Assembly: GCF_964030745.1 (NCBI RefSeq)
Contig: NZ_OZ034918.1
Span: 720,001 to 752,000 of the forward strand
DNA from: Candidatus Saccharimonadota bacterium
GTDB lineage: Bacteria > Bacteroidota > Bacteroidia > Cytophagales > Amoebophilaceae
Length of the DNA stretch: 32,000 nucleotides
Direction of reading: 5' to 3'
The position numbers and the translations under genes were made by a program. Under the pieces are notes generated by a model that was not told the origin of the DNA, made no database searches, and saw only the letters and a program-made list of their open reading frames with translations. Shown here one piece after another: positions 3,061-23,523 of this stretch (positions are counted from its first letter, which is position 1; every line of letters starts with the position of its first letter).

Positions 3061-3121
3061 TTTTGATTTGTATTGAACTCATGTATAACAACCTAACTAT
3101 TTTAAACAGGTCTACAGTAAT

Positions 3122-4885: not shown

Positions 4886-5064
4886 GAATAGTCTCTACCT
4901 TAAATAGTCGACCCTGAAGTATTCATACTTCAAGTTATTTATTAAAAAAATAATCACCTGCCCCATTTCAATTTTTTCATGTTCTGTATCTATTCTAATC
5001 CTGGTATCTGTATACGTTAGTTCAGGATAAAGCATCTTAGTGCTATAGGTTTTATTTTACCTGA

Positions 5065-5910: not shown

Positions 5911-5933
5911 TTTTTCAAGTTCTTTTGGGCAGA

Positions 5934-6344: not shown

Positions 6345-6599
6345 CCCTATTTTGCAAGGTTTTATACAAAAAAACTCTAAAAATGGTTATTATATATACT
6401 ATAATATACGGTTTTTTATATTCATAAACAAATAAATATATAATATTTCAGGGCCGACTAAATAGTTTACTAATGTTCTTTAAAAAGTTAGTATTGGACT
6501 GGTCAAGATTTTGCCTGAAAGAAGTATAGAAAGACCCGAATCTCTAGCCTAAATAGACTACAAGAAATATCACTTAATCCTTAACTTGACGCATATGGT

Positions 6600-9500
6600 T
6601 TAGTGAACACTTCCATTTAAAATCTGATTACATATATTTTCCATTTCTGATAACCAAGTTAAAATATTATTTTTTTGGGACCATGGAATATAAAAGTCCA
6701 TAGTATCTTTGGCTATTCTTTTTTGGTCTTCTAGTTTTCGTGCAGCTATAGTTCTTAGATTGTGAAGTCTATCAGCTAGCTTAATCTGAACGACACGAAT
6801 ATCCTTACACTTATTTAATATATTTTGATTATCAGACTTATCTAGTTTCCATCGCAAACCATAAGTATTATAATGCGTAACCATGTCTACTATATAAGCA
6901 ACTTCCATTCCATATAGTAGTTCTATTTGCTCTAATGTAACGATTGTATCCTCTACTACATCATGTAATAGAGCCGCTAAAATGGTTTCAGCATTCTTTG
7001 TAGCTTCTAATACAATCTTAGCTACCCCCATGGGGTGGGTATAATAAGGATCACCTGACTTACGTATAACATTGCCATGTGCTTGCTTAATAAAGTGAAT
7101 GGTTGCTTTTACCTTTTGTTCAGTTAACGTTGTGTTGCTTACAAGCAGGCTAATAAGCTCTTTTTCTTGGGTTAAACTTGCATCAGTTTCTGCTAACTTA
7201 TTAGATAAGTCATCGGTATGATATCGTTTAAACTGCATAACTTTTTTGCCATCAATAGGTAATATATAGAAACAGGCTAAACCACTTTCTGTTTCTATGG
7301 TTTCTATATATCCTCCATGAGCTTGTACAATTTTTCTACTTTCTTCTTGATATAGATTATTGATGGTCTTAGGTACGAAGTATGAATTAATCTTATCTGT
7401 AATTACATAAGTAGGTGCTATATTGGGATTATCTGTATCTGTGGATATAGAAAAAGCGAGTGCAGGTAATATAGGAGCGCTTAATTGCTTCTCAGAGGTA
7501 CTATATATGGATACCTGGTTAGGCTCAGGAAAAGGGTAAGATAACAATGTGTCTGAAATAGTTAAATAAACGGTATGATCTATGGTATATTTACTCTGGC
7601 ATAGGTTTAAAAAATTTATAGTCAATAATCTTTCAAAGATAGTTGGGTCGGTTAATAAATATTTTTCTTTTGTTTTTTTCGTTAAAAGCAGCTGTATAGG
7701 TATATCTAGTTTCCTAACGGTTTCATAAGATTTTAGGATCAGTTTCTCTATGTCAACTTTATGGATAGATTTGGAATCTAACGTGTACGTATGTTCTTCC
7801 TTAGCTCTTTTTAGTAACGATTGTCTAAATACATATAACTGTTTCTGGTGTTTCTCTATAGGTAGGTTTTTTGCATGTATGCCCAGTTCATCAGCTATAT
7901 CTTGCAACACTTTTCCGCTATAGGTAGGATCTAATCTGTTCCAGTTTTCTTGATTATGTAGAGAAGCTAGCGTATACTGTTGATCGCAGATTCTAGTTAA
8001 CGCTATAGTTTGTAATTGTCTGTTAACTTTATTTCTTAAATATCGATAGACTAGGCAACTAAGTAGAATGGTTAACCCTATCATTGTTTCTGTAGTTATC
8101 CATTCTTTACAACTTACAAGGTCTAAATGAGGCGGTATCCATTTATATATCAATAATACGACAGATAGCATTATTATTGTTATGGTATATGGCAATAATA
8201 GACTACTTATACCTATGTTGATTATAAACATTGCGCAAGCCATAGGTTCAAAATGGCTTAGTTTCATATAGGTGATGCCAGAAATAAAAAGGACTCCATA
8301 TAAAACTATAGGCCACAATCCATGCAACAGACTATTACCTTCCTGTTTATAAGCATGAAGTGTAGGATAGATGGTTATTACTGTTCCTATAGCCATGACA
8401 GATATATACCAGTATATGTAAGGAAATAGATATACTTGCTTCACATAGAAAAGTAGTATGGCGTTGTAAACAATAAAATAAATACCTGACGCTATGAAAG
8501 TAGTAGCGCTTTTAGGAAATATATCTTTCCAGTAAGAAATAGTAAAAATTGATTGAAAATAGTATAATTTTCTTAACCACCAACGTTTGGTTTCTTGGTT
8601 TTGTAGTTTTACTGGACTATCATCTGGAATCCCCACCCAACCCGTATTTGGCTTTTTAGGTAGCAGGTAATGAAGGATCAATAAAATGGACGCACCATAT
8701 ATAAGGGATAGAAATACATCTCGTTCTCTTATAGGTTGTCCTTTTATAAAGATATGGTAAACTGTCATAGCCGTGTTAATTCCCATCGACCATAAGACAG
8801 CAGCTGAACGAGGTCTAAATCCAAAGCAAGCCATAATCATTGGAACTGTAACCGAAGGCGTATAGAAATAAAATACTTTATTTAAAAATTGTCTAATATT
8901 ACTCATGTGTAATGTGATCAGAATGGTAGCTATACCTATTAAACCAGAGGATATTCGTACAACTCTTAGAGAATATTTATCAGTTCGTTCTCTAGAACCG
9001 GTTATGAAAGGCCATATATCATTAGCAAATAACACAGAACCTGTATGTAAATAAGAATCAACTGTAGAAATACATAAAGCAATAATAGATGTTATAAGCA
9101 ACCCTTTGATTCCAGGAAAATGATTAAGCTGCATAATATAGTCTAGTATTTTTTGTTTAGGTGGAATACTATTGCCACTCGTGTATAAAGCAGCAATAAC
9201 AACTAAAAATAGAAGTGAAAAAACGATCCGAATTGTACCACTCTTGAAAAATACTTTGGTTGCTTGTTGAATAGAAGAAGACATATAAAAACGCTGAATT
9301 TGCGCTGGATCAAAAGTAAATATGGAATGCCAAATGAAATAAGTAAACAGATGAACTAAGGAGTTATCCCATGTAGGAGAGATATCCCAAGTAGCTACTT
9401 GGGATAAATTAAACTGTGACATATTGACAAATTTTTGCCAGTTAATCCATTGGTTTTTAGAATTATATAACAAAGTAAAAGTTAGAATAGGCAAACAAAC

Positions 9501-10067
9501 ACTGAAAAAACAAAATTGATAAACATCTGTTAGCGCTACAGACCTGGCCCCACCTAAAATAGTGTAAGCCGTAACTAGTAGGCCCAAAATAACTGTATAG
9601 TAATTAGAATATGCTGGTGCATTACAAGAAGTAATAGATTCAATAATAATTAAACTAATCTTAAACTGAGCAGAAACTTTAGCTATCGTTACTACAATAC
9701 CAAATATAGCTGTAAGAATTCGCACTGATCTCCCACATAGCCTACCCATAGATTCAGCAATGGAATAATCTCCTAGCCACTCTTTCATTCTAACAATAAT
9801 GAACCGAGAGGCTAAATAAAATCTAAGTGGACTACCTAGACTTAGTATTAACATATATAATCCTTGATAGTAATAACCAGTTAGTTGAGTATGTAAAAAA
9901 TTCCCTCCATATATGGTAGCTATTAAAGAGATAGTAACTACCCAAGTGGACATATTTCTACTGCCAACTGCATAGTCTTTAAATGTAGTAACTGACTTAC
10001 TACAGTATAATCCTATTGCCAGTGTAGTGACTAAGAATATTATTATGATCAATAGGTCGATATCCAT
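6600..10067 (-). CDS. multidomain membrane protein: sodium:solute symporter (SSS/SLC5)-like domain + ~6 extra TM helices + histidine-kinase-ATPase-like region + RelA/SpoT-type HD (alarmone hydrolase) domain
   Basis: 1155 aa, one uninterrupted ORF. The N-terminal ~480 aa are polytopic and SSS-like (TTFKDYAVG, GGARSVALTDVYQF). The C-terminal 165 aa (nt ~6603-7097) match the RSH hydrolase domain: RKSGDPYYTHPMGVA, AALLHDVVEDT (HD codons at 6960-6965) and VQIKLADRLHNLRT. No synthetase domain follows. Confidence 0.8.
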   Translation of the reverse strand: MDIDLLIIIIFLVTTLAIGLYCSKSVTTFKDYAVGSRNMSTWVVTISLIATIYGGNFLHTQLTGYYYQGLYMLILSLGSPLRFYLASRFIIVRMKEWLGDYSIAESMGRLCGRSVRILTAIFGIVVTIAKVSAQFKISLIIIESITSCNAPAYSNYYTVILGLLVTAYTILGGARSVALTDVYQFCFFSVCLPILTFTLLYNSKNQWINWQKFVNMSQFNLSQVATWDISPTWDNSLVHLFTYFIWHSIFTFDPAQIQRFYMSSSIQQATKVFFKSGTIRIVFSLLFLVVIAALYTSGNSIPPKQKILDYIMQLNHFPGIKGLLITSIIALCISTVDSYLHTGSVLFANDIWPFITGSRERTDKYSLRVVRISSGLIGIATILITLHMSNIRQFLNKVFYFYTPSVTVPMIMACFGFRPRSAAVLWSMGINTAMTVYHIFIKGQPIRERDVFLSLIYGASILLILHYLLPKKPNTGWVGIPDDSPVKLQNQETKRWWLRKLYYFQSIFTISYWKDIFPKSATTFIASGIYFIVYNAILLFYVKQVYLFPYIYWYISVMAIGTVITIYPTLHAYKQEGNSLLHGLWPIVLYGVLFISGITYMKLSHFEPMACAMFIINIGISSLLLPYTITIIMLSVVLLIYKWIPPHLDLVSCKEWITTETMIGLTILLSCLVYRYLRNKVNRQLQTIALTRICDQQYTLASLHNQENWNRLDPTYSGKVLQDIADELGIHAKNLPIEKHQKQLYVFRQSLLKRAKEEHTYTLDSKSIHKVDIEKLILKSYETVRKLDIPIQLLLTKKTKEKYLLTDPTIFERLLTINFLNLCQSKYTIDHTVYLTISDTLLSYPFPEPNQVSIYSTSEKQLSAPILPALAFSISTDTDNPNIAPTYVITDKINSYFVPKTINNLYQEESRKIVQAHGGYIETIETESGLACFYILPIDGKKVMQFKRYHTDDLSNKLAETDASLTQEKELISLLVSNTTLTEQKVKATIHFIKQAHGNVIRKSGDPYYTHPMGVAKIVLEATKNAETILAALLHDVVEDTIVTLEQIELLYGMEVAYIVDMVTHYNTYGLRWKLDKSDNQNILNKCKDIRVVQIKLADRLHNLRTIAARKLEDQKRIAKDTMDFYIPWSQKNNILTWLSEMENICNQILNGSVH

Positions 10068-10208
10068 GGATTATCTGTATTTATTGTTTTTAGTGCAACA
10101 CTATAATAAAATTTATTGAATACTTCCATCCTTCATGGTAATGGCAGATAATATTCATTTAATTTTTGTATTAAATGTTATGATATATGTATATACATAT
10201 ACTATATA

Positions 10209-10943: not shown

Positions 10944-11077
10944 TTATAAAGGAGGTACATAAACATAACGCATAATTTGTTTCAATAAATATATAGAAAG
11001 GATTTCCAAATATAATTTATCACATAATGGATTTAATAGGTACCTAATATTGAAGTTATACAAATAAACATTACAAA

Positions 11078-11512
11078 ATGAAAGACTATACTTTACAAGT
11101 AACAGCTAGAGCGCTAATAGTAAAAAATAGGCAATTACTACTTGTTAGTAATGATTATAAGCTTTGGTATACACCTGGCGGGCATTTAGAACCAAGTGAA
11201 ACGCTTCCAGCGTGCATGGTAAGAGAAGTAAAAGAAGAAACTGGACTTGATGTTAAACCAAACCAAATTGTCCATGTTGCAGAATTTTTTGATAAAAAGT
11301 ATAATGCACATAAGATAGAGGTCTATTTTTCCGCAGAAATAGATGTAAATGAGCTGCCTAAAAATTGGTCAGATAAAGATGGTCCAGTTACAACCTCTCA
11401 ATTTTTTGATGTTGAAGCCTTAAAAGATATCCATGTTGTACCAGCCTTTTTAAAAACAGGTAAATGGTCAAATTTTGATCTTGATGTTTATCAAGGATCA
11501 GAAAAGAGATAA
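11078..11512 (+). CDS. NUDIX hydrolase (cytoplasmic, MutT-like size)
   Basis: 144 aa. NUDIX box GHLEPSETLPACMVREVKEETGL is a perfect fit to Gx5Ex7REUxEExGU. Confidence 0.85.
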   Translation: MKDYTLQVTARALIVKNRQLLLVSNDYKLWYTPGGHLEPSETLPACMVREVKEETGLDVKPNQIVHVAEFFDKKYNAHKIEVYFSAEIDVNELPKNWSDKDGPVTTSQFFDVEALKDIHVVPAFLKTGKWSNFDLDVYQGSEKR

Positions 11513-11533: not shown

Positions 11534-12141
11534 TGTAGTAGTTGATATTTAATCTGCCACGTGGAGGGTAACAACCTATACGAATCACACACTTAGTTGG
11601 ACCATAGGCGTCAAGTTAAGTCTATGATTTGTATAAACGTTGAGTAGTATAATGGACTGAATAATTCGGACAAAAATTTTTCACTTTATTTTCGTATCTG
11701 TTCAACACTATGGCCATAGTGATAAAATGCCCCTGTAAAAAGTTTCGAAATAGAAGCCACCCCTTGCAGATGATTGGGAAAAACAGATTCCTTTGAAGCC
11801 CGCGTAGCGGGCGACTTCTGTTTTTCCATCTGTAAGGGGTGGGTTCCGGAACTTTTTGCCGAGGGCTTGATTTTTTGTCCACTTTTTTATCAAGAAAAAA
11901 GTGGAATACAATTCATTATTAACCAGTGACGTGAATAGATACTTATTTTCCGTATGTTTTAGTTTTAAACTGGCTAATATTATTTATACAACTGAAAACC
12001 AATTGTATAATTTTTAGGTTAACAGCATTGAGTGAACGATAGTTGAGAAATATGTAAATAACAAAAAATAGTTACCTGCTTAACTAGAAAAAGCAGATAC
12101 CTAATTTTTACTGATTGTCAGATTAAATATCAATTTCTACA
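11534..12141. mobile_element. 608-bp transposase-less element bounded by IS481-type ends (deletion derivative or MITE-like)
   Basis: Left end TGTAGTAGTTGATATTTAATCTG (11534-11556) is identical to the IRL of the 1266-2455 IS. The right end ...CTAATTTTTACTGATTGTCAGATTAAATATCAATTTCTACA (to 12141) matches its IRR plus ~15 nt of subterminal sequence, with a few mismatches. The interior has no transposase and no clear TSD. Confidence 0.65.
11710..11933 (-). repeat. copy B of a ~230-bp structured MITE-like repeat (inverted relative to copy A at 31274-31507)
   Basis: The reverse complement aligns along its whole length with 31274-31507 (CACGTCACTGGTTAATAATGAATT...GGCCATAGTGTTGAAC), with roughly one substitution per ten bases. 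Confidence 0.8.
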
Positions 12142-12158
12142 AAGGACGATTTGGGGAT

Positions 12159-14627
12159 TTACTCTTTGTGCGGCAACCGTCCTAAGATTTCATTTAAGCT
12201 TGCCTCATCTGGCACCAACACTTCTCTAGCTTTGCTGCCCTCAAAGGGGCCTACAATACCTGCCGCTTCCAATTGGTCTATAAGTCTTCCAGAGCGGTTA
12301 TAGCCCAACTTCAGCTTGCGTTGGATCAAAGAAGTACTGCCCTGTTGGTGCAATACAATCAACCTGGCCGCTTCTTCAAATAAGGGATCCGTTGCCTGCA
12401 AATCTACAGATACCATATCCTCTTTATCCTCTTCATCGTAAGTAGGTAACATATAGGCAGATGCATAGCCTTGCTGTGCACCAATATAGCTGCAAACACG
12501 TTCTACCTCTTCTGTATCTAAAAAGGGCGTTTGCAAACGAATGATATCAGAATTCATGGAAAGCAACATGTCTCCATTGCCTACCAATTGCTCCGCACCA
12601 CTCGCATCTAAAATCGTTCTAGAGTCAATCCGTGAGCTTACTTTATAGGAAATCCTAACAGGAAAATTCGCTTTGATAATACCTGTAATCACATTCACAG
12701 AAGGCCTTTGTGTAGCCAAAACAAGATGGATGCCAATGGCACGTGCCAATTGGGCCAGTCGTGCAATGGGTACCTCTATTTCCTTACCTGCTGTCATCAT
12801 CATATCGGCAAACTCATCTATCACCAATACAATATAGGGTAAAAAACGGTGGCCTTCTTGAGGGTTTAGTATCCTTTTTATAAACTTTTCATTGTATTCT
12901 TTAATATTACGTGTGCCCGCTTCCTTTAGTAGTTCATAGCGGTGGTCCATTTCAATGCATAAAGAATTCAAGGTATGAATTACCTTTTTGGTTTCTGTAA
13001 TAATCGGTTCTTCACTGATCGGTAATTTGGCTAAAAAATGACGTTCTAATTTGTTATAGAGCGAAAGTTCTACCTTTTTAGGGTCTACCAATACCAGTTT
13101 TAATTGGGAGGGATGCTTTTTATAAATCAAAGAGGTCAATAGCACATTGAGCCCGACAGATTTGCCTTGCCCAGTAGCACCTGCAATAAGTAGATGAGGC
13201 ATGCGGCCTAAATCTGCAATAAACAGCTCATTAGAGATACTTTTACCCAATACAATAGGTAAATCCATCTTCCCTTTTAAAAACTTTTCAGAGGCAAGCA
13301 TCTCCTGAAGCGGTACGACTTCTCTATTTTTATTGGGTACTTCAATGCCAATGGTGCCTTTCCCTGGTATGGGCGCAATGATACGAATCCCTAACGCAGC
13401 TAGGTTGAGGGCAATGTCGTCCTCCAGGTTTTTTATCTTGGAAATTTTTACCCCTGCTTCAGGTACAATTTCATAAAGGGTAACGGTAGGGCCAATAGTA
13501 GCTTTAATTTTGGCAATATTAATCTTAAAGTTTTGTAGGGTTTGTACAATATTGTTTTTATTGATAGCCAACTCTTCCTGTGTAACAGATAGCTGTTCTT
13601 GTTCATATCGTTCCAATAGATCTAAAGAAGGATATTTGTAGTGCGATAGGTCTAAGGTTGGATCGTAGTTTTCGCTTCGAATATGGGGCATTGTCGAAGG
13701 TGTAGGAGAGGAGGAGGCTTGAGGCAGTTTTTTAGAGGATGGTTGAGGGGCGACTACTTCAAAGTCTATATTGCTTTTGTCAGGCGTTTCTATACTGATT
13801 TTCAGATTTGTATCTGCTGCATCTGTAGGGGTAGGTTCGCTGTCATTGATTTTTTTTTTACTAGATGGCGGCTCACTTTCTGATTCAAATGGATCACTTT
13901 CTCTGTTATTTTCCTCTTTGGGTGAATATCTATGCTCTTTTTGTGTATGTTTCCGTGCAAATAAACGAGGTGACGGAAAAGAAGTTACATTGAAAAATAT
14001 CACCATGAAGATGAGCAAGGCAATAAAAAGCAAGATAAAAGTGCCATAGCCTAATAGTCCTTTAAATAACGTGCCAAGCGTATAGCCCACTCCTCCTAGA
14101 TGGTTAGCCAGTAAGGTGGCAGTTGGGTAGAGTGTGTATAGGTAGCCTAGTAAAATATTGAACCATAATACAAGAAAAATAGAAGCCATCATCACTTTTA
14201 ATAAGGAAAGGTGAGGACAAATTTTTTGTGTGACCATTTTTATGCCTGTTAAAAATGGAAAAGGCAAAAAGATAAAAGCGGTGATGCCCCACCAGATATG
14301 GATACAATAATAACTTATAAAAGCACCCGTAAAACCCAGCCAGTTGGAAATAGCCAGACTAGATGCCTTGAAACCTAAAGACCGAAAAGATTCAATAAGA
14401 TGCTGATCTTTAGCGCCATGAATAAGATGCGACAGGAAGGAAAATGCTAAAAAAATACTAATCCCCTGTAGAAAAAATCCAATGGTTATTTTAGTACGTT
14501 GGTCTAATATAAATGGCTTGGATGGAGCACTTTTTTTAGGCGTAGCTGGCTGAACTTTATAATTATTTGGGGCCATTGAATAAACAAAAGAAAAATAGGA
14601 TACCTCCAGTAAGGCAAAATTAAGCAA
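12159..14627 (-). CDS. ftsK: DNA translocase FtsK
   Basis: N-terminal TM helices, a Pro/Ser/Lys-rich linker, Walker A GATGQGKSVGLN, Walker B VLVIDEFADMMM, and a C-terminal gamma domain GSTSLIQRKLKLGYNRSGRLIDQLEAAGIVGP. The real start may be MAPNNYK at 14576. Confidence 0.9.
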   Translation of the reverse strand: MLNFALLEVSYFSFVYSMAPNNYKVQPATPKKSAPSKPFILDQRTKITIGFFLQGISIFLAFSFLSHLIHGAKDQHLIESFRSLGFKASSLAISNWLGFTGAFISYYCIHIWWGITAFIFLPFPFLTGIKMVTQKICPHLSLLKVMMASIFLVLWFNILLGYLYTLYPTATLLANHLGGVGYTLGTLFKGLLGYGTFILLFIALLIFMVIFFNVTSFPSPRLFARKHTQKEHRYSPKEENNRESDPFESESEPPSSKKKINDSEPTPTDAADTNLKISIETPDKSNIDFEVVAPQPSSKKLPQASSSPTPSTMPHIRSENYDPTLDLSHYKYPSLDLLERYEQEQLSVTQEELAINKNNIVQTLQNFKINIAKIKATIGPTVTLYEIVPEAGVKISKIKNLEDDIALNLAALGIRIIAPIPGKGTIGIEVPNKNREVVPLQEMLASEKFLKGKMDLPIVLGKSISNELFIADLGRMPHLLIAGATGQGKSVGLNVLLTSLIYKKHPSQLKLVLVDPKKVELSLYNKLERHFLAKLPISEEPIITETKKVIHTLNSLCIEMDHRYELLKEAGTRNIKEYNEKFIKRILNPQEGHRFLPYIVLVIDEFADMMMTAGKEIEVPIARLAQLARAIGIHLVLATQRPSVNVITGIIKANFPVRISYKVSSRIDSRTILDASGAEQLVGNGDMLLSMNSDIIRLQTPFLDTEEVERVCSYIGAQQGYASAYMLPTYDEEDKEDMVSVDLQATDPLFEEAARLIVLHQQGSTSLIQRKLKLGYNRSGRLIDQLEAAGIVGPFEGSKAREVLVPDEASLNEILGRLPHKE

Positions 14628-14922
14628 ATCCCAATTCTAACTTAGCTGCTTGAGACATTCGATCTATTGTATAAGGAGGCTCAAAGGTAATATCTACCTT
14701 TACTTCATGCACTCCTTCTATCGCTTTAATCTTTTCTTCTACTTGGCTAGGTATGATATCTGCTGCTGGACAATTGGGAGAAGTAAGTGTCATTAAGACC
14801 TCAATGTTATTGAGCGGCAAGATGGTAATGTCATAGATAAGTCCTAGTTCATAAACATCTACTGGTATCTCTGGATCATACACTTGTTTAATAGCTGCTA
14901 TAATTTGTTCTTTTTGAATCAT
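14620..14922 (-). CDS. DUF59 / SufT-like Fe-S cluster assembly protein
   Basis: 100 aa. VYDPEIPVDVYELGLIY...LTSPNCPAADIIPSQVE is the typical DUF59 (MIP18/PaaD-like) pattern. Confidence 0.75.
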   Translation of the reverse strand: MIQKEQIIAAIKQVYDPEIPVDVYELGLIYDITILPLNNIEVLMTLTSPNCPAADIIPSQVEEKIKAIEGVHEVKVDITFEPPYTIDRMSQAAKLELGFA

Positions 14923-15061
14923 AATGATGATAGATTTGAATACCCCACCCTTGCGAAACCAAAATTACCATTAGAAGTAGGCTTTAAAAGAGGTCCAAGA
15001 GTGAATGCGCTGCAATATAACCAATCATCTCTAAAAAGGCTACCATCTGTTTACATAGTAA

Positions 15062-18000
15062 CTAACTGCTTGTATCCCTTTTGTTATTTTTTTCGATACT
15101 GTTTCCTACCTTCAGAGCCTTTTTAGCTGCTACTTCTAATACTGTGGCTATCTCTGGGCCTAAGTACGTATTGGCCAGTTTCACATCTATAGCCAATGTT
15201 TCTTGTGCCATATGTTGCACCTCTGTTGGATGGATATAACCTGCTGCATGGCGTAGGTCATAGAGCCGTTCTGCCAGTTTAATAAATAGAACAGAAAGCT
15301 GTATATGTTCTTCCTTGATCGCTTCTTTCAGTCGATTCTGCACATATAGCAAAGAAGGATGGTCTAGCGATTGCCGTTTATCGATCCCTACCACATTCAA
15401 GACAAAAGCATAGACGCCTAAGTTATAATGTTCCTTGACATAAGAAAGCGGTAAACAGGTACGACGCACCAGTTCATACAACAAAGCAGCATAGATTACT
15501 TTAGGAGAGTGAAAAGCCCACTCTACTACCAATTCAGCAATCCCTACCGCCCGCACATAAAACAATTGACCAGAAGCATGTCGTTTAAAACCAAAATGTT
15601 GCCTCAGCAATAAAAGCAATCCAGAAATAGTGCCCACATCCACAGGATCCATCTGATAAGAGAACTTGCAAACATAGTCATGGAACTTCATGAGTACCAT
15701 CATCGAATCGGCTTGCTCCTTAGGGGTGGCGGGTGCTTCTAAGGTTAAGGCATCTAGAGGGAGTGTAGTAGTCATCCTACCTAGGATATCTGTGACATCA
15801 TTAGGCAATACCAACAGCATCGAGGGGTGCTTTTTTCCACCCAACGTTTCCCAATAGCCATAATGGGCACCAACAATACTGGATAAGGTTTCCTGTTGCA
15901 AGTCTATAGAGGGTGGTGTTTCTGGTTTACCTTGAGGGTCGATCGCATCTATGGCATCGCCATAGGTCTGCTTCACTTTAGGTAGTGTTTCAGGAGCAGC
16001 AGTAGCCTGGCTGATTACCAAAGCCGTAGCTTGAAAAAGAATGCATACAGGTTGGCTGCCATCAACAGGATCGGCTAGCTTAAACTGCAAAGCAGTCGAA
16101 TGGAGTTGTATCCGCACAACGGGTCTAACCGCCTCCTGTAGCTTACCGACACGTAAAACAGCCTTAACCAATAAGTAGACTACTTGATGGATATCACATA
16201 CCATATAAGGGGATGCCCCCCCATTGGCACTAGTTATGGTTTCTACCAGTAGTCTAGGTGGATCAGTCACCTCTTGCGACAAGGCCAACTCTACCTTACG
16301 TATTAACTTATCTAATGTGATCTGCGTAGGTTGCAACAGTGCATGCTTTTTAGCTTTAGCCCTTCTATTGAAGTAGGCCGCCCAATCGTAGAGCTTATTG
16401 ATAATACTTTGAAAGTCCTGTTTATAAAGCGGAATATTGCTATCTAAAAAAGAAATAGATTCCTCAATCTTACCTATTACCTCCGTTAGAATGGCACCAT
16501 ACCCTTTGGCCTTACCAACCGTAGGCCCTGCAGCTGCATCATAAAGAGAGGCTTTGAGTTGCTGGGATTTTCTTATTTTTTCATGATTTTCAAGGTAAAG
16601 AATTTTATTTATGTAAATATTTTGGTTGACTTTAAACCAAATAATAATCGCAACGATTAATAGGCTCACCACAAATAGTGGCAACAAGGTACACAACATG
16701 GGCAGCGTAAATCCCACGGAAATAGGATAAAGCGCCAGTAGTAATGTACCAGTTACAACCCCTATACCCAGATAGAGGGGAAAGAGCGATAAGATTACCG
16801 CACAATGGGCCAACGACAAGGATGTGGTAAAGACCGGGTCTACCAGGTTCCACCAGTGCTCAAGTAGATTTACAGGGAGGTAAACCGCTAGTCCTATTAG
16901 CCAACACACACCCATGCACCAAGCTGGAATGGTTTTGCTAAAAAAGGTTTTAGAAGAGGTAAAAAGCGCCCCCACAAGGACTTGACAAATCGCCCAATAG
17001 ATGTGATCGGGCCTAATAAACCAATAATCTAGAATAGCAGTAGCGACCATATATAGACCTATTAAGCGTATGGTACGATCACTGGGCATCAGTTTGAGTA
17101 AAATAGCTTTTTTATTGGTCCAGCCATTTTTAATAGCTTCTTTTCGTTCCACACGTTTGCGTCTATGAGCTTGTTGGAGTTGTTTAAACTGGTAATCCGG
17201 ATCCATCCACCCCGTGTCTTTAGGTTGTTTAAATAAATGGTGGGCTGCCATCATAGCTAGGCCATTTGCTACCATAGCAGGGAAAGAGCCATCCATACCT
17301 GTTGAAGGTTTAACCCATTTGTTCCAAGCTACAATAGCCAGTCCACCTGTTGCCATACCGACTAAAGCAGTACGAGTAGTCCCTCGAAAACCAAAAGCAG
17401 CTAAGATAAAAGGAGCTGTTACGATAGGTATAGAGCAGTTAAGGGACCAATACAGTAATTTTAACAGGTCTTGATTTTTAAAAGCTAACAGCATAGCCAA
17501 TAGACCCACCACTAATGTAGCCCGTCTAGCTATTTTAAGTTGATAGCCATCTGTAATTTCTTTTCCTTTTTGTAGACTTTTCACGATATCATGGCCAACC
17601 ATAACAGAGCAAGCATTTAAGCAAGAATCAGCTGTGGACATTGCCATAGCCAGCAAACTAATGGTCACAAATCCTTTAAAAAAAGGAGGGATGTGGTTCA
17701 TTATATATTCCAAAATTGCTTCCTTCGGTAAATCTGGTGCTTTTACAAAAACAAATAGACTTATTAAAGTGATAAAAGAAGTTATAACAAGGCTAAAAAG
17801 AGTAGCATATGAAAAAACTTTCTGAGCCTGAATAGGGCCAGAAGCCATATACACCCGTTGCATAGTGTGTGGACTTACTCGAGATGTTAAAGCACTTAAC
17901 ACACGCAACAATAGCGCTATGAGTATGGTATAGCCATGGAGTAGACTACTAAATTGAAATTTAGTATGGCCTTGTAGCATAGGAATAATGGTTGCAGCTG

Positions 18001-18613
18001 GCTTGTCTGCTTTTGCAAACATACACCAAGCTAAAAGGGGAATAATAATGGAAAAGGTTAGAAACTGCAATACATCTGTAAAGGTAACGGCACGAATACC
18101 TCCAAAAGTGGAATAGAAGATCAGGAGTAAGCTTGCAAGGGCAGTGATTACATAGGGATTAGTCAATACCAGACAAATTTCAATGGCCTTGCTCATTACA
18201 ATCATTTGGCTAGTAATGATAACGATACAACTACATATACTAACCAAAGCAGTAAGAATCCGTGGATAGATACCATACACACTACCTATTGTTTCAGCTA
18301 TAGAGAGGTGTTGCATAAATGGCCCCATACGCAATGCTAATCTACCAATGAACCAATTACCAAAACAATTTAAAAGTATAACAATGATCCAAAATAAGCC
18401 AAGTTCATAAATACACTCTACATTACGTATTAAGCCTCCTCCACCATAATCAGTAGCCAATACTGTAGCAACTAGGGTGGCGGTAGCAAATTGTTTATTC
18501 CCCACTGCATATTCCCGAAAGGTGGTTTTTTTTCTACTAAAGTAAATACCTACCACCAGCGTTAAGGATAAAAAAGCGGCTACTATAAATAAGGCCATAC
18601 TGAAGTAGATCAT
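15062..18613 (-). CDS. paralogue of 6600-10067: SSS-like domain + extra TMs + kinase-like region + degenerate (predicted inactive) HD domain
   Basis: 1183 aa with the same architecture and alignable termini (TTFREYAVG vs TTFKDYAVG). In the HD region AALLYELVRRT replaces AALLHDVVEDT (YE codons at 15473-15478), FYVRAVGIA replaces YYTHPMGVA, and IKLAERLYDLRH replaces IKLADRLHNLRT. Confidence 0.75.
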   Translation of the reverse strand: MIYFSMALFIVAAFLSLTLVVGIYFSRKKTTFREYAVGNKQFATATLVATVLATDYGGGGLIRNVECIYELGLFWIIVILLNCFGNWFIGRLALRMGPFMQHLSIAETIGSVYGIYPRILTALVSICSCIVIITSQMIVMSKAIEICLVLTNPYVITALASLLLIFYSTFGGIRAVTFTDVLQFLTFSIIIPLLAWCMFAKADKPAATIIPMLQGHTKFQFSSLLHGYTILIALLLRVLSALTSRVSPHTMQRVYMASGPIQAQKVFSYATLFSLVITSFITLISLFVFVKAPDLPKEAILEYIMNHIPPFFKGFVTISLLAMAMSTADSCLNACSVMVGHDIVKSLQKGKEITDGYQLKIARRATLVVGLLAMLLAFKNQDLLKLLYWSLNCSIPIVTAPFILAAFGFRGTTRTALVGMATGGLAIVAWNKWVKPSTGMDGSFPAMVANGLAMMAAHHLFKQPKDTGWMDPDYQFKQLQQAHRRKRVERKEAIKNGWTNKKAILLKLMPSDRTIRLIGLYMVATAILDYWFIRPDHIYWAICQVLVGALFTSSKTFFSKTIPAWCMGVCWLIGLAVYLPVNLLEHWWNLVDPVFTTSLSLAHCAVILSLFPLYLGIGVVTGTLLLALYPISVGFTLPMLCTLLPLFVVSLLIVAIIIWFKVNQNIYINKILYLENHEKIRKSQQLKASLYDAAAGPTVGKAKGYGAILTEVIGKIEESISFLDSNIPLYKQDFQSIINKLYDWAAYFNRRAKAKKHALLQPTQITLDKLIRKVELALSQEVTDPPRLLVETITSANGGASPYMVCDIHQVVYLLVKAVLRVGKLQEAVRPVVRIQLHSTALQFKLADPVDGSQPVCILFQATALVISQATAAPETLPKVKQTYGDAIDAIDPQGKPETPPSIDLQQETLSSIVGAHYGYWETLGGKKHPSMLLVLPNDVTDILGRMTTTLPLDALTLEAPATPKEQADSMMVLMKFHDYVCKFSYQMDPVDVGTISGLLLLLRQHFGFKRHASGQLFYVRAVGIAELVVEWAFHSPKVIYAALLYELVRRTCLPLSYVKEHYNLGVYAFVLNVVGIDKRQSLDHPSLLYVQNRLKEAIKEEHIQLSVLFIKLAERLYDLRHAAGYIHPTEVQHMAQETLAIDVKLANTYLGPEIATVLEVAAKKALKVGNSIEKNNKRDTSS

Positions 18614-18712
18614 AAAGGATGCGTTCTTAAAAAGATTAAAAATAGTTGTCAGCCTAGCACACCAATTATAATGGTAGGGATTTTGGGCTAAAAATCAAAA
18701 AAAGGAAAGTTG

Positions 18713-19333
18713 TTAAAGTGTAAGATAAGGCATTATTTTTTTCCCCCAATTAGCATGGTACCCTGGTAGCCTTTGTATGGTATGAAGAGTTATAAACTTC
18801 CCTGCTCGTTTTCTATAATCTATAATGGCTTTGGCCATAGCAGCTGAAATATAAGGATGAGCGACTAATGTTTTAAAGCTTGCTTGGTTTAAGGATAATT
18901 TTTTAGGCCTATAGTAGGTGCATATAGTTGTCCGTTTGATTAATCGTGTTTGAAGATGGTTCGATAGACCATATACCTCCTTATATTGATCGAAGCAAAT
19001 AAACCCACCTAGTTTGTTTCTATACCGTAGGATGCGAACGGCCAGCTGTGCTGTAATGCCTTCTATCTCTTGTAACGCTTCTGGAGTGGCTGTGTTGATG
19101 TTAATCAGGGATACTTTACCAGAGTTTGCTTGCAGTAGCGTTAATTTTTTTTCTAAAAACGCAATAGCTGCGCTATGGTCCAGTGGCTTATGGGTGTATG
19201 TATAGTATAACTTGTATACCTTAGGTGCAATGATGCAAAGTAGCATCAGCGTAATCATGGCGAGCAAACCATTGCTTTCCCGATTAGAAAAATGAAAAGC
19301 TTGTTTGATCCAACGGGTTAGCTTACGCCACAT
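18713..19333 (-). CDS. ComEA-like helix-hairpin-helix DNA-binding protein (membrane-anchored)
   Basis: N-terminal TM LLAMITLMLLCIIAP. Two HhH units: INTATPEALQEIEGITAQLAVRILRYR and LNQASFKTLVAHPYISAAMAKAIIDYR. Confidence 0.65.
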   Translation of the reverse strand: MWRKLTRWIKQAFHFSNRESNGLLAMITLMLLCIIAPKVYKLYYTYTHKPLDHSAAIAFLEKKLTLLQANSGKVSLININTATPEALQEIEGITAQLAVRILRYRNKLGGFICFDQYKEVYGLSNHLQTRLIKRTTICTYYRPKKLSLNQASFKTLVAHPYISAAMAKAIIDYRKRAGKFITLHTIQRLPGYHANWGKKIMPYLTL

Positions 19334-20351
19334 GATGCCTATGAGCGGTTACATATTTTTCCCACTTCTCTATTAGTTTAACAAAATTTTCTGGTAAAGG
19401 GGCTTCAAATGAGAGCGCTACTTTTGTTATTGGGTGGTTAAATCCAAGTACCGCTGCATGTAGTGCCTGGTAAGGCATCAGCTTAAAACAGTTTTGGACA
19501 AAGGCCTTATAGGAGGCATACCGTTGGCCACTAACGATCACATTGCCCCCATACTGAAGGTCACCAAAGACAGGGTGGCCTATATGCTTCATATGGACAC
19601 GAATCTGATGGGTACGTCCTGTTTCTAATCTGCAGGCTACAAGCGAAACATGGTGGAGCCGTTTGATGACTTGATAATGGGTAACCGCTCTTTTTCCTTG
19701 TTGGTTGTCTGGAAAAGCTGCTATTCTTTGATAGTTATGACTGTCTTTACCTACATTGATATGAATCGTTCCAGTCTCATGTTGGGGGGTGCCCCAAACC
19801 AATGTATAGTAGGTCCGTGTTACCGTATGGTTGTAAAATTGACGGGCCAAATCAGCCAGGCTATCTGCTGTTTTGGCCACTACCAATAGGCCTGATGTGT
19901 TTTTATCAATTCGATGTACCAAACCGGGTCTGGTAGCCATATTGTCTTTTAAAGGCAGATGCTTATAGCGATACAGTAATGCATGGGCGAGCGTTCCAGT
20001 GCGATGTGCGCTATCTGGATGTACTGCCATTTGGGCTGGTTTATGGACAACCAGCAGATGATCATCTTCATATACAATATCCAATGGTATCTCTTCTGGC
20101 GTAACCGTTTCTATATCAATGGGTGTAGGTATATGGGCTACTATTGCATCTCCAGGCTGAACGACATAGTTGGGCTTGATAAGGTGCCTATTGACAGTAA
20201 CCGATTGACCAGTAATCGCTTCTTGAATTTTATTTCGACTGATTTGCAAAGCCTCTGATAAAAACTTGTCTATACGGAGCTTAGCTTGTTCGTTTGTAAC
20301 GGTAACGGCATATTCTGTTAGAGAGGGTATGGGTAGGCTGTAATCTTTCAT
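19323..20351 (-). CDS. rluD: 23S rRNA pseudouridine synthase, RluD/RluA family
   Basis: S4-like N-terminus (LRIDKFLSE...SRNKIQEAI), catalytic motif HRIDKNTSGLLVVAK, and RTHQIRVH. I place the start at MKDYSLP (ATG 20349-20351) rather than at the listed 20405. Confidence 0.85.
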   Translation of the reverse strand: MKDYSLPIPSLTEYAVTVTNEQAKLRIDKFLSEALQISRNKIQEAITGQSVTVNRHLIKPNYVVQPGDAIVAHIPTPIDIETVTPEEIPLDIVYEDDHLLVVHKPAQMAVHPDSAHRTGTLAHALLYRYKHLPLKDNMATRPGLVHRIDKNTSGLLVVAKTADSLADLARQFYNHTVTRTYYTLVWGTPQHETGTIHINVGKDSHNYQRIAAFPDNQQGKRAVTHYQVIKRLHHVSLVACRLETGRTHQIRVHMKHIGHPVFGDLQYGGNVIVSGQRYASYKAFVQNCFKLMPYQALHAAVLGFNHPITKVALSFEAPLPENFVKLIEKWEKYVTAHRHHVA

Positions 20352-20361
20352 CTGTAATCTT

Positions 20362-20739
20362 TCAAAAGTATTTTCGTTGGATAAATGCATGCATGAGCAG
20401 TCCATTTCTAAATAATTTTTGTTTCCTACTAAAAGAGGTTTTGCACTCCGTTATGGAGCTAGAAGCGGGTTGGGAGGAGTTGGGCTTTGCTGTTACGCTC
20501 TGGAATAAAGGTGCAGCTTGAGGCGTTTTATCTGTCATTTTTCTAGTGATGGGTATTGTCGTAATAGGAGGGTACTCCTTGATTCCTGGCTGATCTTCTA
20601 TCTCATCTTGATCTGGTTCCTCATTGGATACTACATCATTCGATCCATTCAGATGGCTATATAGCCATCGAATGCCCCAAAAGACTAAAACCATAATAAG
20701 CTTAGTTTCTGCTTCAGATTTTAAGACAAAAAATTCCAT
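20362..20739 (-). CDS. hypothetical small membrane-anchored protein
   Basis: 125-aa ORF with one N-terminal hydrophobic helix (LIMVLVFWGIRWLY), then an acidic and a Ser/Pro-rich segment. It lies between infB and rluD on the same strand. No recognisable motif. Confidence 0.35.
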   Translation of the reverse strand: MEFFVLKSEAETKLIMVLVFWGIRWLYSHLNGSNDVVSNEEPDQDEIEDQPGIKEYPPITTIPITRKMTDKTPQAAPLFQSVTAKPNSSQPASSSITECKTSFSRKQKLFRNGLLMHAFIQRKYF

Positions 20740-20793
20740 AAGTTACCCTTATTTATTGCTCAGTAACATTGCGCAAAAGGGCGCTTTACGGGC

Positions 20794-23523
20794 CTAGAGC
20801 TCGCGTTTGATTTCCTTCCGCTCAAAACCTTCTATAATGTCCCCCACTTCAATCTCGTCAAAATTTTTAATATGTATACCACATTCAGAAACAGATTTTA
20901 CTTGCTTAATCTCTTCTAGTCCATGCTTTATAGTATGGATCACACCCGTGAATACAACCTGCTCTTTCCTGATGACGCGTATAGGATTGGATTGTTTGAT
21001 AAAACCTGTTTGTACTTGACAACCTGCAATATTACCAATTTTTGAAAAAGTAAAGATCTTTTTAATTTCTGCGCGACCAGTAGGTGCTTCTTCTATAGTA
21101 GGCGCTAAAAGTCCCTCTACTGCACCACGCACATCATCTATAGCACTGTAAATAATCGAATATTGTTTGATTTCTACTCCCTCTCTCTCAGCCAATTTTT
21201 TGGCTTGCGCAGATGGTTTAATATGAAAAGCAATAATAATGGCTGCAGCAGTAGTAGCCAGGAGTACATCAGATTCTGAAACTGCCCCTACGCCCTTGTG
21301 TAGAATATTTACCTCTACCTCCTCATGAGACAACCTAAGCAATGCGTCCGCTAATGCTTCAATAGAGCCATCCATATCTCCTTTAATGATAATGTTTAGT
21401 TGCTTAAAGTTTCCTACCGTTAAGCGGCGCCCAATTTCATCAAGGGTAAGCTGGGATTTGGTACGCAATGCTTGTTCGCGCAACAGCTGTTGCTTTTTTT
21501 GTGCCAGTTCTCCTGCTTCTTTTATACTATCCATCACACGAAAGGTATCCCCTGCCCTAGGGGCACCATTTAAGCCCAATACCTGTACAGAGGTTGCAGG
21601 GGAGGCTGTTTTTTGGGGAATGTTTTGGTGGTTTAACATCGCTTTGACCTTTCCATAGTAGACACCAGCTAGCACAATATCGCCTACACGTAAGGTGCCA
21701 TCTTGTACAATGCCAGTCGATATATACCCTCTACCGGGATCTAGGAAGGATTCCAGAATGGTACCCCTTGCCTTTTTAGAAGGGGTTGCTTGTAGCTCTA
21801 ATAGCGATGCTTCCAGAAGAATTTTTTCTAAAAGCTCATTTATCCCTTTCCCTGTTTTGGCCGAAATCTCTTGGCATTGGTATTTTCCACCCCAATCTTC
21901 TACTAAGATATTGAGGTTGGCTAAATCTTCTTTAACCTTTTCTGGGTTGGCTTGCGTTTTATCAATTTTATTGATGGCAATAATAATGGGACAACCCGCT
22001 ACTTGCGCATGGCTAATGGACTCCTTAGTCTGAGGCATAATACTATCATCTGCCGCTACCACAATCACGATAATATCGGTTACCTGTGCCCCCCTGGTAC
22101 GCATAGCTGTAAAAGCTTCATGACCAGGTGTATCTAAAAACACAATTTTTTTGTTTTGATCGGTAGTAATATCATAGGCCCCAATGTGCTGTGTAATGCC
22201 ACCAGCCTCTTTTGCAGTTACCTGCGTAGTACGGATATAATCTAGTAATGAAGTTTTTCCGTGATCTACGTGGCCCATAATGGTTACAATAGGCGGACGT
22301 TCCACAAGCTCACCACCTTCTTCCTCTATATCTTTAGAGGCTTCTTCGTTATGGAGGTCAACAAATTCTACGCTATAGCCAAACTCATCTGCAACAACGG
22401 TAATGGCTTCTGCATCCAGACGTTGGTTGATAGAGATAATCATACCTAACGCCATACAGGTAGAAAGCACCTCATTTACGGTAACATCCATAAAAGAAGC
22501 TAATTCATTGGCTGAAATAAATTCCGTAATTTTTAAAACCTTTTCTGTTGCTTTTTCCTGACGTTGACGTTTTTCTTCAGCTTCTAGATGGGCACTACGT
22601 CTATCTCTTTTATACTTAGAGCGTGCTCCATCTCCGCCAGTTTGGTGCAATCTTGCTAAGGTTTTTTTAATTTGGCTTTCTATTTCCTGAGCAGATACGC
22701 CTTCTTGTTCCTGTGGGGTTGTTTTTATTTTAGTATCCTTCTCTCTACGTACGGGAGTAGTAGTAAATTTAGCTTTACTACCGATAGGCCTAGATGTAAT
22801 AGTGGGATTTATGGGGCTTTTTATTCTAACTTGTGGCTTTGGCTCTCCTGTTTTAGGGGAGTCTATTGCACCATGAAGCTTTTGTGATGAAGTGCCACGG
22901 CTATGGTGCTGCCTTCTAAAAGTGTGTTCAGGTAAGGTCATTTTACCTACTATAGTAGGTCTTTTAAGTGGTTCTGAAAAAGATATTTTATCTGGTTTGT
23001 CAGGAGCTTGCTCCGTTGCTTTGTCCAATGGCTGTGATGTAGCATCAGAGCCTCTTGTTGGTGGAGCAACTGGTAAGGTTTCCGCATCAACTGAAGTGAG
23101 GTCACCTTCGGTTTTATTTTTTTCAGGGGTTAAGTCAATCTTTCCAACAGCCTTTAAGCCAGGTAAAACAGGAACAGAAGCTTCGTAATGATCAGGGAGG
23201 ACAGTCTCTTCTTGCGTGATGTTTTTAACTTTTGTGTGTGCTTTCTTGGCAGGTTCTTTGCTTTTTATCTGATCATGCTTACCAGTAGGGGCAGAAAGGC
23301 TGGGGTAGGCTTTGCCGATGGTTACATGCGCGGCTTCTTGTTTATCTACACCAGCTGAAATAAATTCAGCAGCCAGTATATTAAATTGTTCAGCCGTTAT
23401 TTTAGCATTGGGCTTATTGTCTACTGCAAACCCTTTTTGGGCTAAAAAAGAGGCAATTGTCTCTGTTCCTACATTTAACTTTCGAGCCACTTGGCTGAGT
23501 CGCATGTTTTTTTCTTCATTCAT
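20794..23523 (-). CDS. infB: translation initiation factor IF-2
   Basis: GTPase motifs GHVDHGKTSLLD, DTPGHEAF and NKID, a long low-complexity N-terminal region, and a position immediately downstream of nusA. Confidence 0.95.
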   Translation of the reverse strand: MNEEKNMRLSQVARKLNVGTETIASFLAQKGFAVDNKPNAKITAEQFNILAAEFISAGVDKQEAAHVTIGKAYPSLSAPTGKHDQIKSKEPAKKAHTKVKNITQEETVLPDHYEASVPVLPGLKAVGKIDLTPEKNKTEGDLTSVDAETLPVAPPTRGSDATSQPLDKATEQAPDKPDKISFSEPLKRPTIVGKMTLPEHTFRRQHHSRGTSSQKLHGAIDSPKTGEPKPQVRIKSPINPTITSRPIGSKAKFTTTPVRREKDTKIKTTPQEQEGVSAQEIESQIKKTLARLHQTGGDGARSKYKRDRRSAHLEAEEKRQRQEKATEKVLKITEFISANELASFMDVTVNEVLSTCMALGMIISINQRLDAEAITVVADEFGYSVEFVDLHNEEASKDIEEEGGELVERPPIVTIMGHVDHGKTSLLDYIRTTQVTAKEAGGITQHIGAYDITTDQNKKIVFLDTPGHEAFTAMRTRGAQVTDIIVIVVAADDSIMPQTKESISHAQVAGCPIIIAINKIDKTQANPEKVKEDLANLNILVEDWGGKYQCQEISAKTGKGINELLEKILLEASLLELQATPSKKARGTILESFLDPGRGYISTGIVQDGTLRVGDIVLAGVYYGKVKAMLNHQNIPQKTASPATSVQVLGLNGAPRAGDTFRVMDSIKEAGELAQKKQQLLREQALRTKSQLTLDEIGRRLTVGNFKQLNIIIKGDMDGSIEALADALLRLSHEEVEVNILHKGVGAVSESDVLLATTAAAIIIAFHIKPSAQAKKLAEREGVEIKQYSIIYSAIDDVRGAVEGLLAPTIEEAPTGRAEIKKIFTFSKIGNIAGCQVQTGFIKQSNPIRVIRKEQVVFTGVIHTIKHGLEEIKQVKSVSECGIHIKNFDEIEVGDIIEGFERKEIKREL

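Follow-up and report, generated by a model that had tools for sequence, protein, structure and literature searches.

Sensor kinases of the SLC5/STAC type, among them CbrA, CrbS and RpuS, carry an N-terminal SLC5/SSS transporter domain fused to a cytoplasmic core made of a dimerization and histidine phosphotransfer (DHp) domain and a catalytic and ATP-binding (CA) domain, and in CbrA the SLC5 domain is a histidine transporter that also modulates the kinase (PMC7096432). Two groups of proteins with the Rel/SpoT hydrolase fold are also close to the system described here. Atkinson et al. (2011) reported an expansion of the small alarmone hydrolases known as RickSpo in A. asiaticus, for which they listed Rel plus RickSpo, 15 RSHs (PMC3153485), while the pseudo-hydrolase domain of RelA in the gamma- and beta-proteobacteria has lost catalysis, is conserved and acts as a regulatory switch (PMC8012599). 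The subject of our analysis is the gene at positions 15,062 to 18,613 of a 32,000-nucleotide stretch of DNA, called the window from here on, that comes from the genome of a Cardinium endosymbiont, a member of the Amoebophilaceae (contig NZ_OZ034918.1, positions 720,001 to 752,000). This gene encodes an apparently intact transporter joined to a predicted, degenerate histidine-kinase core and to a Rel/SpoT-type HD domain in which all of the metal-binding and catalytic residues have been replaced. We call copies of this kind dead-HD and the copies that keep the hydrolase residues live-HD; one live-HD member of the family, at 6600-10067, is present in the same window (Table 1).

The open reading frame (ORF) is uninterrupted over its 1183 codons, as an earlier reading made from the sequence alone (the sequence-only reading) had stated. 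The start chosen by NCBI is Met6 (nt 18598), which gives a protein of 1178 residues (P0001, 100% identical) annotated as 'sodium:solute symporter family transporter [Cardinium endosymbiont of Philonthus spinipes]' on a 1,093,165-bp contig. Pfam recognizes SSF (residues 35-423, 62.7 bits with a cut-off of 22.8, E 3.7e-17, full model 1-406) and HD_4 (residues 1005-1148, 36.7 bits with a cut-off of 27.2, E 4.4e-9), and at E up to 1 nothing else, with no HisKA, HATPase_c, PAS or STAC match. The RelA_SpoT synthetase domain (PF04607) has no Pfam match in the protein either, and the chain ends after the HD fold. The live-HD protein (SSF, HD_4 at 88.8 bits and HD, PF01966) has the same layout of 19 transmembrane (TM) helices, kinase-like core and HD domain, and BLASTP aligns the two proteins end to end with 24% identity over 1175 columns (E 5e-60). 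The common domain order and the alignable ends that had been noticed by eye are therefore confirmed, and the two proteins are collinear throughout. They differ in their hydrolase residues, which are intact in the 6600-10067 protein, in their GC content (41% for the dead-HD gene vs 33%) and in the clade to which they belong, the live-HD protein being a member of the sister clade.

The replacement of the hydrolase residues is established by alignment to Rel proteins of solved structure (B. subtilis Rel, 8acu/6yxa, and RelSeq, 1vj7). The phmmer matches of the pseudo-HD domain have E values of 1e-3 against the Rel chains in the PDB and 3e-3 against RelSeq 1vj7, and HASGQLFYVRAVG is aligned with RKSGEPYIIHPIQ, LLYELVRRT stands opposite FLHDVVEDT and KLAERLYDLR stands opposite KLADRLHNMR. 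Foldseek searches with an AlphaFold2 (AF2) model of the C-terminal part found, for its last 210 residues, T. thermophilus Rel (6s2u), SpoT (7qpr) and RelSeq (1vj7). In the numbering of RelSeq, where we take H53, H77, D78 and D144 to be the metal ligands, E81 and D82 to be catalytic and N148 to be the asparagine of the DxxHN motif, the complete list of replacements is R44H, H53R, H77Y, D78E, E81R, D82R, D144E, H147Y and N148D. The metal ligands H...HD...D have given way to R1021, Y1046-E1047 and E1115, and the ED pair and the asparagine to R1050-R1051 and D1119. The live-HD protein matches RelSeq 1vj7 with an E value of 1e-30 and retains every residue of this list. The claim in the sequence-only reading that all metal-binding and catalytic residues were substituted in one of the two proteins and intact in the other thus stands, with each change falling at a catalytic position; the first of these changes, which had been read as histidine to V/R, is a real substitution but is precisely histidine to arginine. 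From these alignments we infer that the pseudo-HD domain would be unable to act as a (p)ppGpp 3'-pyrophosphohydrolase. The protein shares the Rel/SpoT hydrolase fold with the RickSpo hydrolases, but with 1183 residues and 19 TM helices it is not small. It differs from RelA in that the pseudo-hydrolase of RelA regulates an adjacent synthetase, whereas here there is no synthetase domain and the neighboring domains are the pseudo-kinase and the transporter; the loss of the catalytic residues is also independent of that in RelA and produced another replacement set.

Table 1. Position of the dead-HD gene and its parts, of the live-HD paralogue and of the downstream genes in the window.
Feature	Position	Strand	Basis or remark
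Whole dead-HD gene	15062..18613	-	Uninterrupted 1183-residue ORF, stop codon inside the coordinates; belongs to the dead-HD clade of the SSS / pseudo-kinase / HD family
SSS/SLC5 LeuT-fold domain, TM1-TM13	17204..18613	-	Residues 1-470; Pfam SSF, AF2, SiaT match
Ser326-Thr327 of MSTADS on TM9, putative Na2-site ligands	17633..17638	-	Codons verified
Amphipathic cytoplasmic helix (residues 474-499) and TM14-19 (residues 512-665)	16619..17203	-	AF2 DSSP helices, block pLDDT 81-91
Predicted pseudo-histidine-kinase core, DHp helices and CA alpha/beta	15764..16603	-	Residues 671-950; Foldseek, collinear alignment
Pseudo-HD, Rel/SpoT/RickSpo-type hydrolase fold	15065..15724	-	Residues 964-1183; Pfam HD_4, Foldseek, phmmer
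Arg1021 replacing the first metal-binding His (RelSeq H53)	15551..15553	-	Alignments; codon verified
Y1046-E1047-L-V-R1050-R1051 replacing HD..ED (RelSeq H77 D78 / E81 D82)	15461..15478	-	Alignments; codons verified
E1115-R-L-Y1118-D1119 replacing D-R-L-H-N (RelSeq D144, H147, N148)	15257..15271	-	Alignments; codons verified
Live-HD family member	6600..10067	-	1155 residues, WP_342265054.1, same genome; all hydrolase residues kept
Intact HD_4/HD domain of the live-HD copy	6675..7097	-	R1002, H1011, H1035-D1036, E1039-D1040, D1099, H1102, N1103
FtsK and FeS-assembly-P gene	12159..14922	-	Directly downstream; synteny anchors common to the Nabis limbatus Cardinium orthologue (L002)

Our homologue search returned 379 proteins, and because the database was clustered at 90% identity all family copy counts are lower bounds. 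The genome studied here (1.09 Mb) has at least eight full-length dead-HD copies (P0001, P0002, P0004, P0009, P0010, P0013, P0033 and P0034) and at least two live-HD copies (the 6600-10067 gene and P0131), which together occupy ~3% of the genome (10 copies of ~3.5 kb). The C. hertigii genome with DK880 locus tags (1,193,042-bp contig) contains at least 14 dead-HD and 13 live-HD copies, ~8% of the contig, and most copies in both the Philonthus and the DK880 genomes are dead-HD. The description of the gene as the second copy in an active/inactive pair has to be given up in view of these numbers. Among 148 aligned sequences the state of the HD motif is binary, with a dead-HD clade (n=82) and a live-HD clade (n=57). 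In the dead-HD clade the residues are R at RelSeq position H53, Y at H77, E/D/G at D78, R at E81, R/H/Y at D82, E at D144, Y at H147 and D at N148, where the live-HD clade has H, H, D, E, D, D, H and N, respectively. Y1046 is invariant in the dead-HD clade, R1050, E1115, Y1118 and D1119 are fixed at 90% or above, and R1021 is present throughout with the sole exception of P0031 (H), so that the near-invariant replacement set is R, Y, R, E, Y, D; positions 1047 (E/D/G) and 1051 (R/H/Y) are variable. The two clades have only S1014, G1015, Y1019, LL, T1052, V1071, K1112, A1114 and R1116 in common in this domain, and motifs such as TCLPLSY, FYVR and SVL are conserved in the dead-HD clade and absent from the live-HD clade. 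Within the live-HD clade, P0139 and P0185 show an independent partial decay of the HD motif.

The dead-HD sequences are monophyletic in neighbor-joining trees calculated separately for the N-terminal and the C-terminal half, which speaks for one ancient loss and a subsequent expansion. Identity between the dead-HD and live-HD clades in the cytoplasmic region is ~20%. The dead-HD clade is restricted to the Amoebophilaceae, while the live-HD clade is also found in other metagenome-assembled genomes (MAGs) labeled as Bacteroidota (e.g. P0117 and P0120). When 1.84 billion representatives were searched exhaustively by phmmer with the pseudo-HD domain alone, only 31 clusters were obtained at E up to 1e-10, and in all of them the domain forms the C-terminal end of a long or fragmentary protein; the matches beyond these were ordinary RSH hydrolases with 22-32% identity. 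The family undergoes birth and death, since at the orthologous locus of the Nabis limbatus Cardinium (L002:3-2861) a second dead-HD member is found in tandem directly upstream and ~10 kb from that locus (L017:3001-6414) another family copy is broken into many short ORFs.

The conservation pattern also bears on the idea that the domain is a re-tooled enzyme, still catalytic on another substrate by means of a new, possibly metal-independent Arg/Tyr/Glu/Asp set. The replacement residues are near-invariant and chemically reactive and the SG, Y, K and R positions of the pocket are kept in both clades, as such an enzyme would have them, but all four metal ligands and the ED pair are gone and the former catalytic positions 1047 and 1051 vary freely. 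We know of no member of the HD superfamily that works without its metal site, and we consider a re-tooled enzyme highly improbable.

Earlier surveys counted members of this family under different names. In Amoebophilus, Brown et al. (2018) listed 18 homologues named 'spoT / sodium glucose cotransporter', and for three strains of Cardinium their numbers were 7, 3 and 2 (PMC6232779); Mann et al. (2017) listed 12 'putative sodium-solute symporters' in cEper1, all of them expressed and two among the top-ranked genes (PMC5698495); and Selberherr et al. (2022) found 19 in A. asiaticus that are regulated over the life cycle (PMC8831229). The difference between 3 'spoT' and 12 'symporter' genes in cEper1 may represent dead-HD copies that were missed by hydrolase-based searches. 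Among the highly expressed cEper1 genes are CAHE_0796 and CAHE_0352. The surveys that searched for hydrolases list hydrolase-type copies and mention no catalytically dead clade (PMC3153485, PMC6232779), and the words symporter, sodium and ppGpp are absent from a 2025 review of Cardinium. In open-access papers and bioRxiv we came across no account of the dead-HD clade, its fixed residues, the kinase-like core or the mosaic evolution described below.

Selection and gene conversion were examined with the Nabis, Oedothorax and cEina3 Cardinium genomes. Approximate Nei-Gojobori ratios of nonsynonymous to synonymous substitution (dN/dS) against the syntenic Nabis limbatus orthologue (L002) are 0.04 for the HD domain and 0.16 for the middle domain; the symporter has 0.27 and TM14-19 have 0.26. 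The HD domain has values of 0.06-0.16 in five other comparisons, and over the comparisons SSF has 0.23-0.30, the kinase-like core 0.16-0.31 and the whole gene 0.19-0.26. The proportion of nonsynonymous differences (pN) alone agrees (HD 0.06 vs 0.18). For the HD domain of four paralogues from the Nabis genome, pN is 0.04-0.09 and the proportion of synonymous differences (pS) is 0.15-0.64, and since pN stays this low while pS reaches 0.6, selection and not homogenization alone must have maintained the domain. The HD window is the most conserved part of the protein across Cardinium (identity 0.74-0.82). The mean identity among paralogues in the transporter core vs the HD domain is 0.50 vs 0.93 in the DK880 dead-HD clade, 0.65 vs 0.87 in the DK880 live-HD clade and 0.57 vs 0.86 in the Philonthus dead-HD clade; 'variable input, constant output' therefore characterizes the family as a whole, and the dead HD is conserved no less tightly than the live one. 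Two dead-HD genes from other loci of this genome, P0004 and P0013, are 100% identical over residues 1-50 and 401-1183 and 40-62% identical over residues 51-400, a mosaic that points to recent exchange of the transporter core or of the rest of the gene. The C-terminal module is thus held nearly constant by purifying selection and gene conversion in both clades. These results speak for the retained function of a pseudo-enzyme that the sequence-only reading had proposed from the intact ORF, as the clade is monophyletic, the replacements are near-fixed, selection is not relaxed and the HD domain has the lowest dN/dS in the protein.

The transporter domain appears to be complete. The AF2 model of the N-terminal part (residues 1-680) has a predicted local distance difference test score (pLDDT) of 92.6 and a predicted template modeling score (pTM) of 0.82, and shows 13 TM helices with TM2 and TM7 broken as in the LeuT fold; the TM count was taken from this model because crude hydropathy counting is unreliable. 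Its best match in the PDB is the Na+/sialic-acid symporter SiaT (5nva, target-normalized TM-score 0.83, root-mean-square deviation 3.5 A, 485 columns), and further matches are CHT1, SGLT and NIS. The MSTADS motif with S326 and T327, which we equate with the Na2-site pair of PutP (S340/T341) and of vSGLT on core TM8, is conserved at 94% or above in both clades, and in the transporter core many of the polar residues within the membrane are near-invariant. The least conserved helices are TM2b, TM3 and TM7a, which hints at diversification of the substrate site. Judged by its sequence and predicted fold, the transporter core looks functional, with Na+-coupled transport as its putative activity. In the model, the six additional helices TM14-19 follow the core, and TM19 continues straight into a cytoplasmic stalk.

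A complete and confidently predicted SSS fold with a Na2-type motif, paralogues that diversify in the transporter core and the name 'putative sodium/solute symporters' used in the literature (PMC5698495, PMC8831229) are what one would expect if the protein were a plain Na+/solute importer, one of many in a host-dependent bacterium, with kinase-like and HD-like domains that are vestigial or serve folding, stability or oligomerization. A vestigial part should, however, be the least constrained, yet the HD domain is the most constrained by both dN/dS (0.04-0.16) and paralogue identity (0.86-0.93 in the dead-HD clades). The fixation of new residues at former active-site positions and the ~500 cytoplasmic residues kept in each copy in genomes of ~1 Mb also argue against this explanation, which we regard as unlikely.

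The middle domain, which the sequence-only reading did not include, is a degenerate histidine-kinase core according to its predicted structure. The AF2 model of the C-terminal part (residues 671-1183, pLDDT 81.2) has CckA (5idj, 8e-7) as its top Foldseek match, followed by RetS (6dk7), HK853 (2c2a), ZraS and CusS. The distant homologues P0186-P0189 are true SSF+HisKA+HATPase_c proteins, and the family aligns collinearly with them. In this alignment both clades have lost the H-box histidine, the N-box asparagine and the G1 (DxGxG) and G2 (GxGxG) motifs; the family is without histidine at the H-box column, where the kinase consensus is R-N-[IVM]-[ST]-H, and the sole kinase segment that it retains is the terminal 'AH(Y/G)GY ... 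LP'. In hhalign comparisons with the kinases the middle domain gave E 2e-4 (probability 48%) for the intact clade and E 0.03 for the dead clade. The protein therefore differs from the SLC5/STAC sensor kinases in the absence of the phospho-acceptor histidine and of the N, G1 and G2 boxes, in its C-terminal HD domain and, apparently, in having a cytoplasmic helix and six TM helices in the place of STAC or PAS, for which there is no Pfam match at E up to 1. It carries two dead enzyme modules on a transporter that is apparently intact. Because P0186-P0189 are collinear with the family and the H, N, G1 and G2 boxes are lost in both clades, descent from SSF sensor kinases would account for the layout. 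The nearest relatives outside the family are the sensor kinases P0186, P0188 and P0189, together with P0187 from a Rickettsiaceae MAG; the last of these echoes the link between Rickettsiales and Amoebophilus noted for the RickSpo hydrolases.

Non-canonical kinases of the RetS type signal by protein-protein interaction rather than by canonical phosphotransfer, and the interference of RetS with GacS is a precedent for heteromeric antagonism. The sequence-only reading had suggested something similar, namely that the dead-HD protein forms heteromers with the live-HD paralogue or antagonizes it; such contacts would run via the DHp-like helices and would antagonize or regulate the hydrolase. The DHp-CA core, normally a dimerization module, is present in both clades with RetS among the best structural matches, and dead-HD and live-HD copies coexist in every well-sampled genome that we have seen, at a distance of 5 kb in the window. 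The resemblance to RetS is one of fold only, with 13-15% identity. Moreover, cytoplasmic identity between the clades is low and their DHp segments look different, copy numbers are unpaired (8:2 here and 14:13 in DK880), and the tandem partner at the syntenic locus of the Nabis limbatus Cardinium is dead-HD, not live-HD. We think it quite unlikely that heteromers of this kind explain the family.

We consider it probable that the dead-HD domain is a non-catalytic regulatory or output module in an array of transceptors, i.e. proteins that would derive from sensor kinases of the SLC5 type such as CbrA and CrbS. In such an array, TM14-19 and the DHp stalk would link the conformational cycle of the individual, solute-specific transporter to a cytoplasmic module that all members have in common, on the model of the SLC5 sensor kinases. 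The module of the live-HD clade would degrade (p)ppGpp or a related nucleotide, while that of the dead-HD clade would work without catalysis, binding a shared ligand or a partner protein or serving as a regulatory domain for it; if no (p)ppGpp can be hydrolyzed in the dead-HD clade, the module should have to work by binding a ligand or partner, much as the pseudo-hydrolase of RelA works as a switch (PMC8012599). Many uptake systems could be tied in this way to one intracellular signal, or could report to one partner. Our first guess for the ligand would be an alarmone or a nucleotide phosphate held by the two new arginines, since two nearly invariant arginines at the former metal site suit a phosphate-bearing ligand.

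Several points weigh against this transceptor reading. The kinase-like assignment depends mainly on predicted structure and collinear alignment, with a weak profile match, and hmmsearch of the true SSF kinases with the middle-domain profiles of the family found no kinase and matched only P0184. The dN/dS ratios are approximate because dS is near saturation (~1) between species, and patches of low pS (0.15-0.29) mean that gene conversion accounts for some of the C-terminal uniformity. R44, the arginine that stacks on the guanine base in Rel hydrolases, has changed to a fixed histidine, and this makes retained (p)ppGpp binding far from assured. The direction of signaling is pure conjecture on our part, be it from the transporter to the module or the reverse. 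As for a (p)ppGpp synthetase in Cardinium, Rel has been reported for A. asiaticus only (PMC3153485). The sole match of the long RSH type in our search, P0191, is very AT-rich and K/N/I-rich, unlike an Amoebophilaceae protein. A more extended version of the transceptor reading, in which solute-specific transceptors, 10 to 27 or more in number, form an array in the Amoebophilaceae symbionts and share an output module that comes in two flavors, one alarmone-degrading and the other doubly dead and re-purposed as a receptor for an alarmone, another nucleotide or a partner protein, is put forward as a tentative possibility that we would not at present bet on.

The genomic neighborhood of the dead-HD gene bears on whether it could instead be a decaying gene or the cargo of a mobile element, for example a repeat similar to a miniature inverted-repeat transposable element (MITE). 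Fragmented copies of the family do exist (L017 in the Nabis limbatus Cardinium and partial proteins among the homologues), SSS/HD fragments in the Cardinium of Tyrophagus putrescentiae have been listed as MITE candidates (PMC12039267), and insertion sequence (IS) elements are nearby in the window. The 3.5-kb ORF, however, has no frameshifts or stops and is under strong purifying selection in every domain, for which reason a pseudogene was rejected. The locus is also syntenic between the Philonthus and Nabis limbatus Cardinium, with the same FeS-assembly and FtsK neighbors, and no terminal inverted repeats were found around the gene. Decay or mobile-element cargo is effectively refuted for this gene, and we give it next to no weight.

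The higher GC content of the dead-HD gene compared with the live-HD gene, which had been estimated by hand count in the sequence-only reading, is correct in direction and rough size: the values are 41.3% (36.6% at third codon positions, GC3) and 33.0% (GC3 25.3%). The suggestion that the two genes may differ in age or origin for this reason was not borne out. The genes of the window span 31.7-43.1% GC and each family gene resembles its neighbors, dead-HD genes in other genomes have 34-41% GC, and the syntenic Nabis limbatus orthologue is equally GC-rich (41.1%, with flanks of 40.3%). This resemblance to neighbors and flanks means that the contrast reflects local composition rather than separate origins; within the Amoebophilaceae both clades are old and have been passed on vertically. 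The live-HD gene is part of a block of 30-35% GC (window ~3000-11500) that also holds IS elements and NUDIX genes, and this block abuts one of 38-44% GC (window 12000-23500) with FtsK, the dead-HD gene, RluD and IF2.

Other features of the window were recorded along the way. Two NUDIX hydrolase genes (10209-10943(+) and 11078-11512(+)) are located between the live-HD gene and FtsK; some NUDIX enzymes degrade alarmones. A pair of 243-bp inverted repeats with 91% identity (11700-11942 and 31265-31507) has both copies in intergenic positions, one in the gap between the second NUDIX gene and FtsK and the other upstream of an ATP/ADP translocase gene, and is possibly a MITE-like or regulatory element. 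IS-type transposase genes are present at 1330-2418(+) (rve-type) and 28398-29432(-) (intact, IS5-like), and another IS5-like transposase gene, split into two ORFs (5065-6344(-)), directly adjoins the live-HD gene; the two IS5-like copies of the window have no detectable DNA similarity to each other. The gene at 3122-4885(+) encodes a protein with AAA-ATPase_like and PDDEXK_9 domains of the DUF1703 type, which has been reported in the literature as another expanded gene family of Cardinium. A 604-residue protein (26452-28266(+)) with a weak match to the effector family of the IpgD phosphoinositide phosphatase (PF05925, E 5.7e-7) is a candidate host-interaction effector, and an ankyrin-repeat protein (72-974(+)) and the TLC-type ATP/ADP translocase (29700-31253(-)) are of kinds that are typical for an obligately intracellular lifestyle. 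Scans for Rfam families and tRNAs found nothing in the window, and a scan for sigma-70 promoters and terminators gave fewer matches than in shuffled sequence.

In the literature these proteins are named only 'putative sodium/solute symporters' or 'spoT homologues', whereas our analysis describes them as fusions of a transporter, a predicted pseudo-kinase and a hydrolase. What is new is that in most copies of these genomes the hydrolase domain is catalytically dead but under stronger constraint than any other part of the protein, and this shifts the question from which solutes are imported to what the proteins of the family sense or signal. The pseudo-HD clade is a second, independent pseudo-hydrolase lineage of the RSH superfamily besides RelA, and the evolution of the family, through selection and gene conversion, clearly exemplifies 'variable input, constant output'. 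The bacterium studied here is an insect endosymbiont; Cardinium are unculturable reproductive manipulators, and the soluble C-terminal domains offer a tractable entry to their nutrient sensing and possible alarmone signaling. If the extended array interpretation is true, dozens of uptake systems would be connected to one and the same signal inside the cell, the family would be a previously unrecognized class of nucleotide-gated or nucleotide-reporting transporters, and it would represent a new way for a bacterium with hardly any conventional regulators to sense nutrients.

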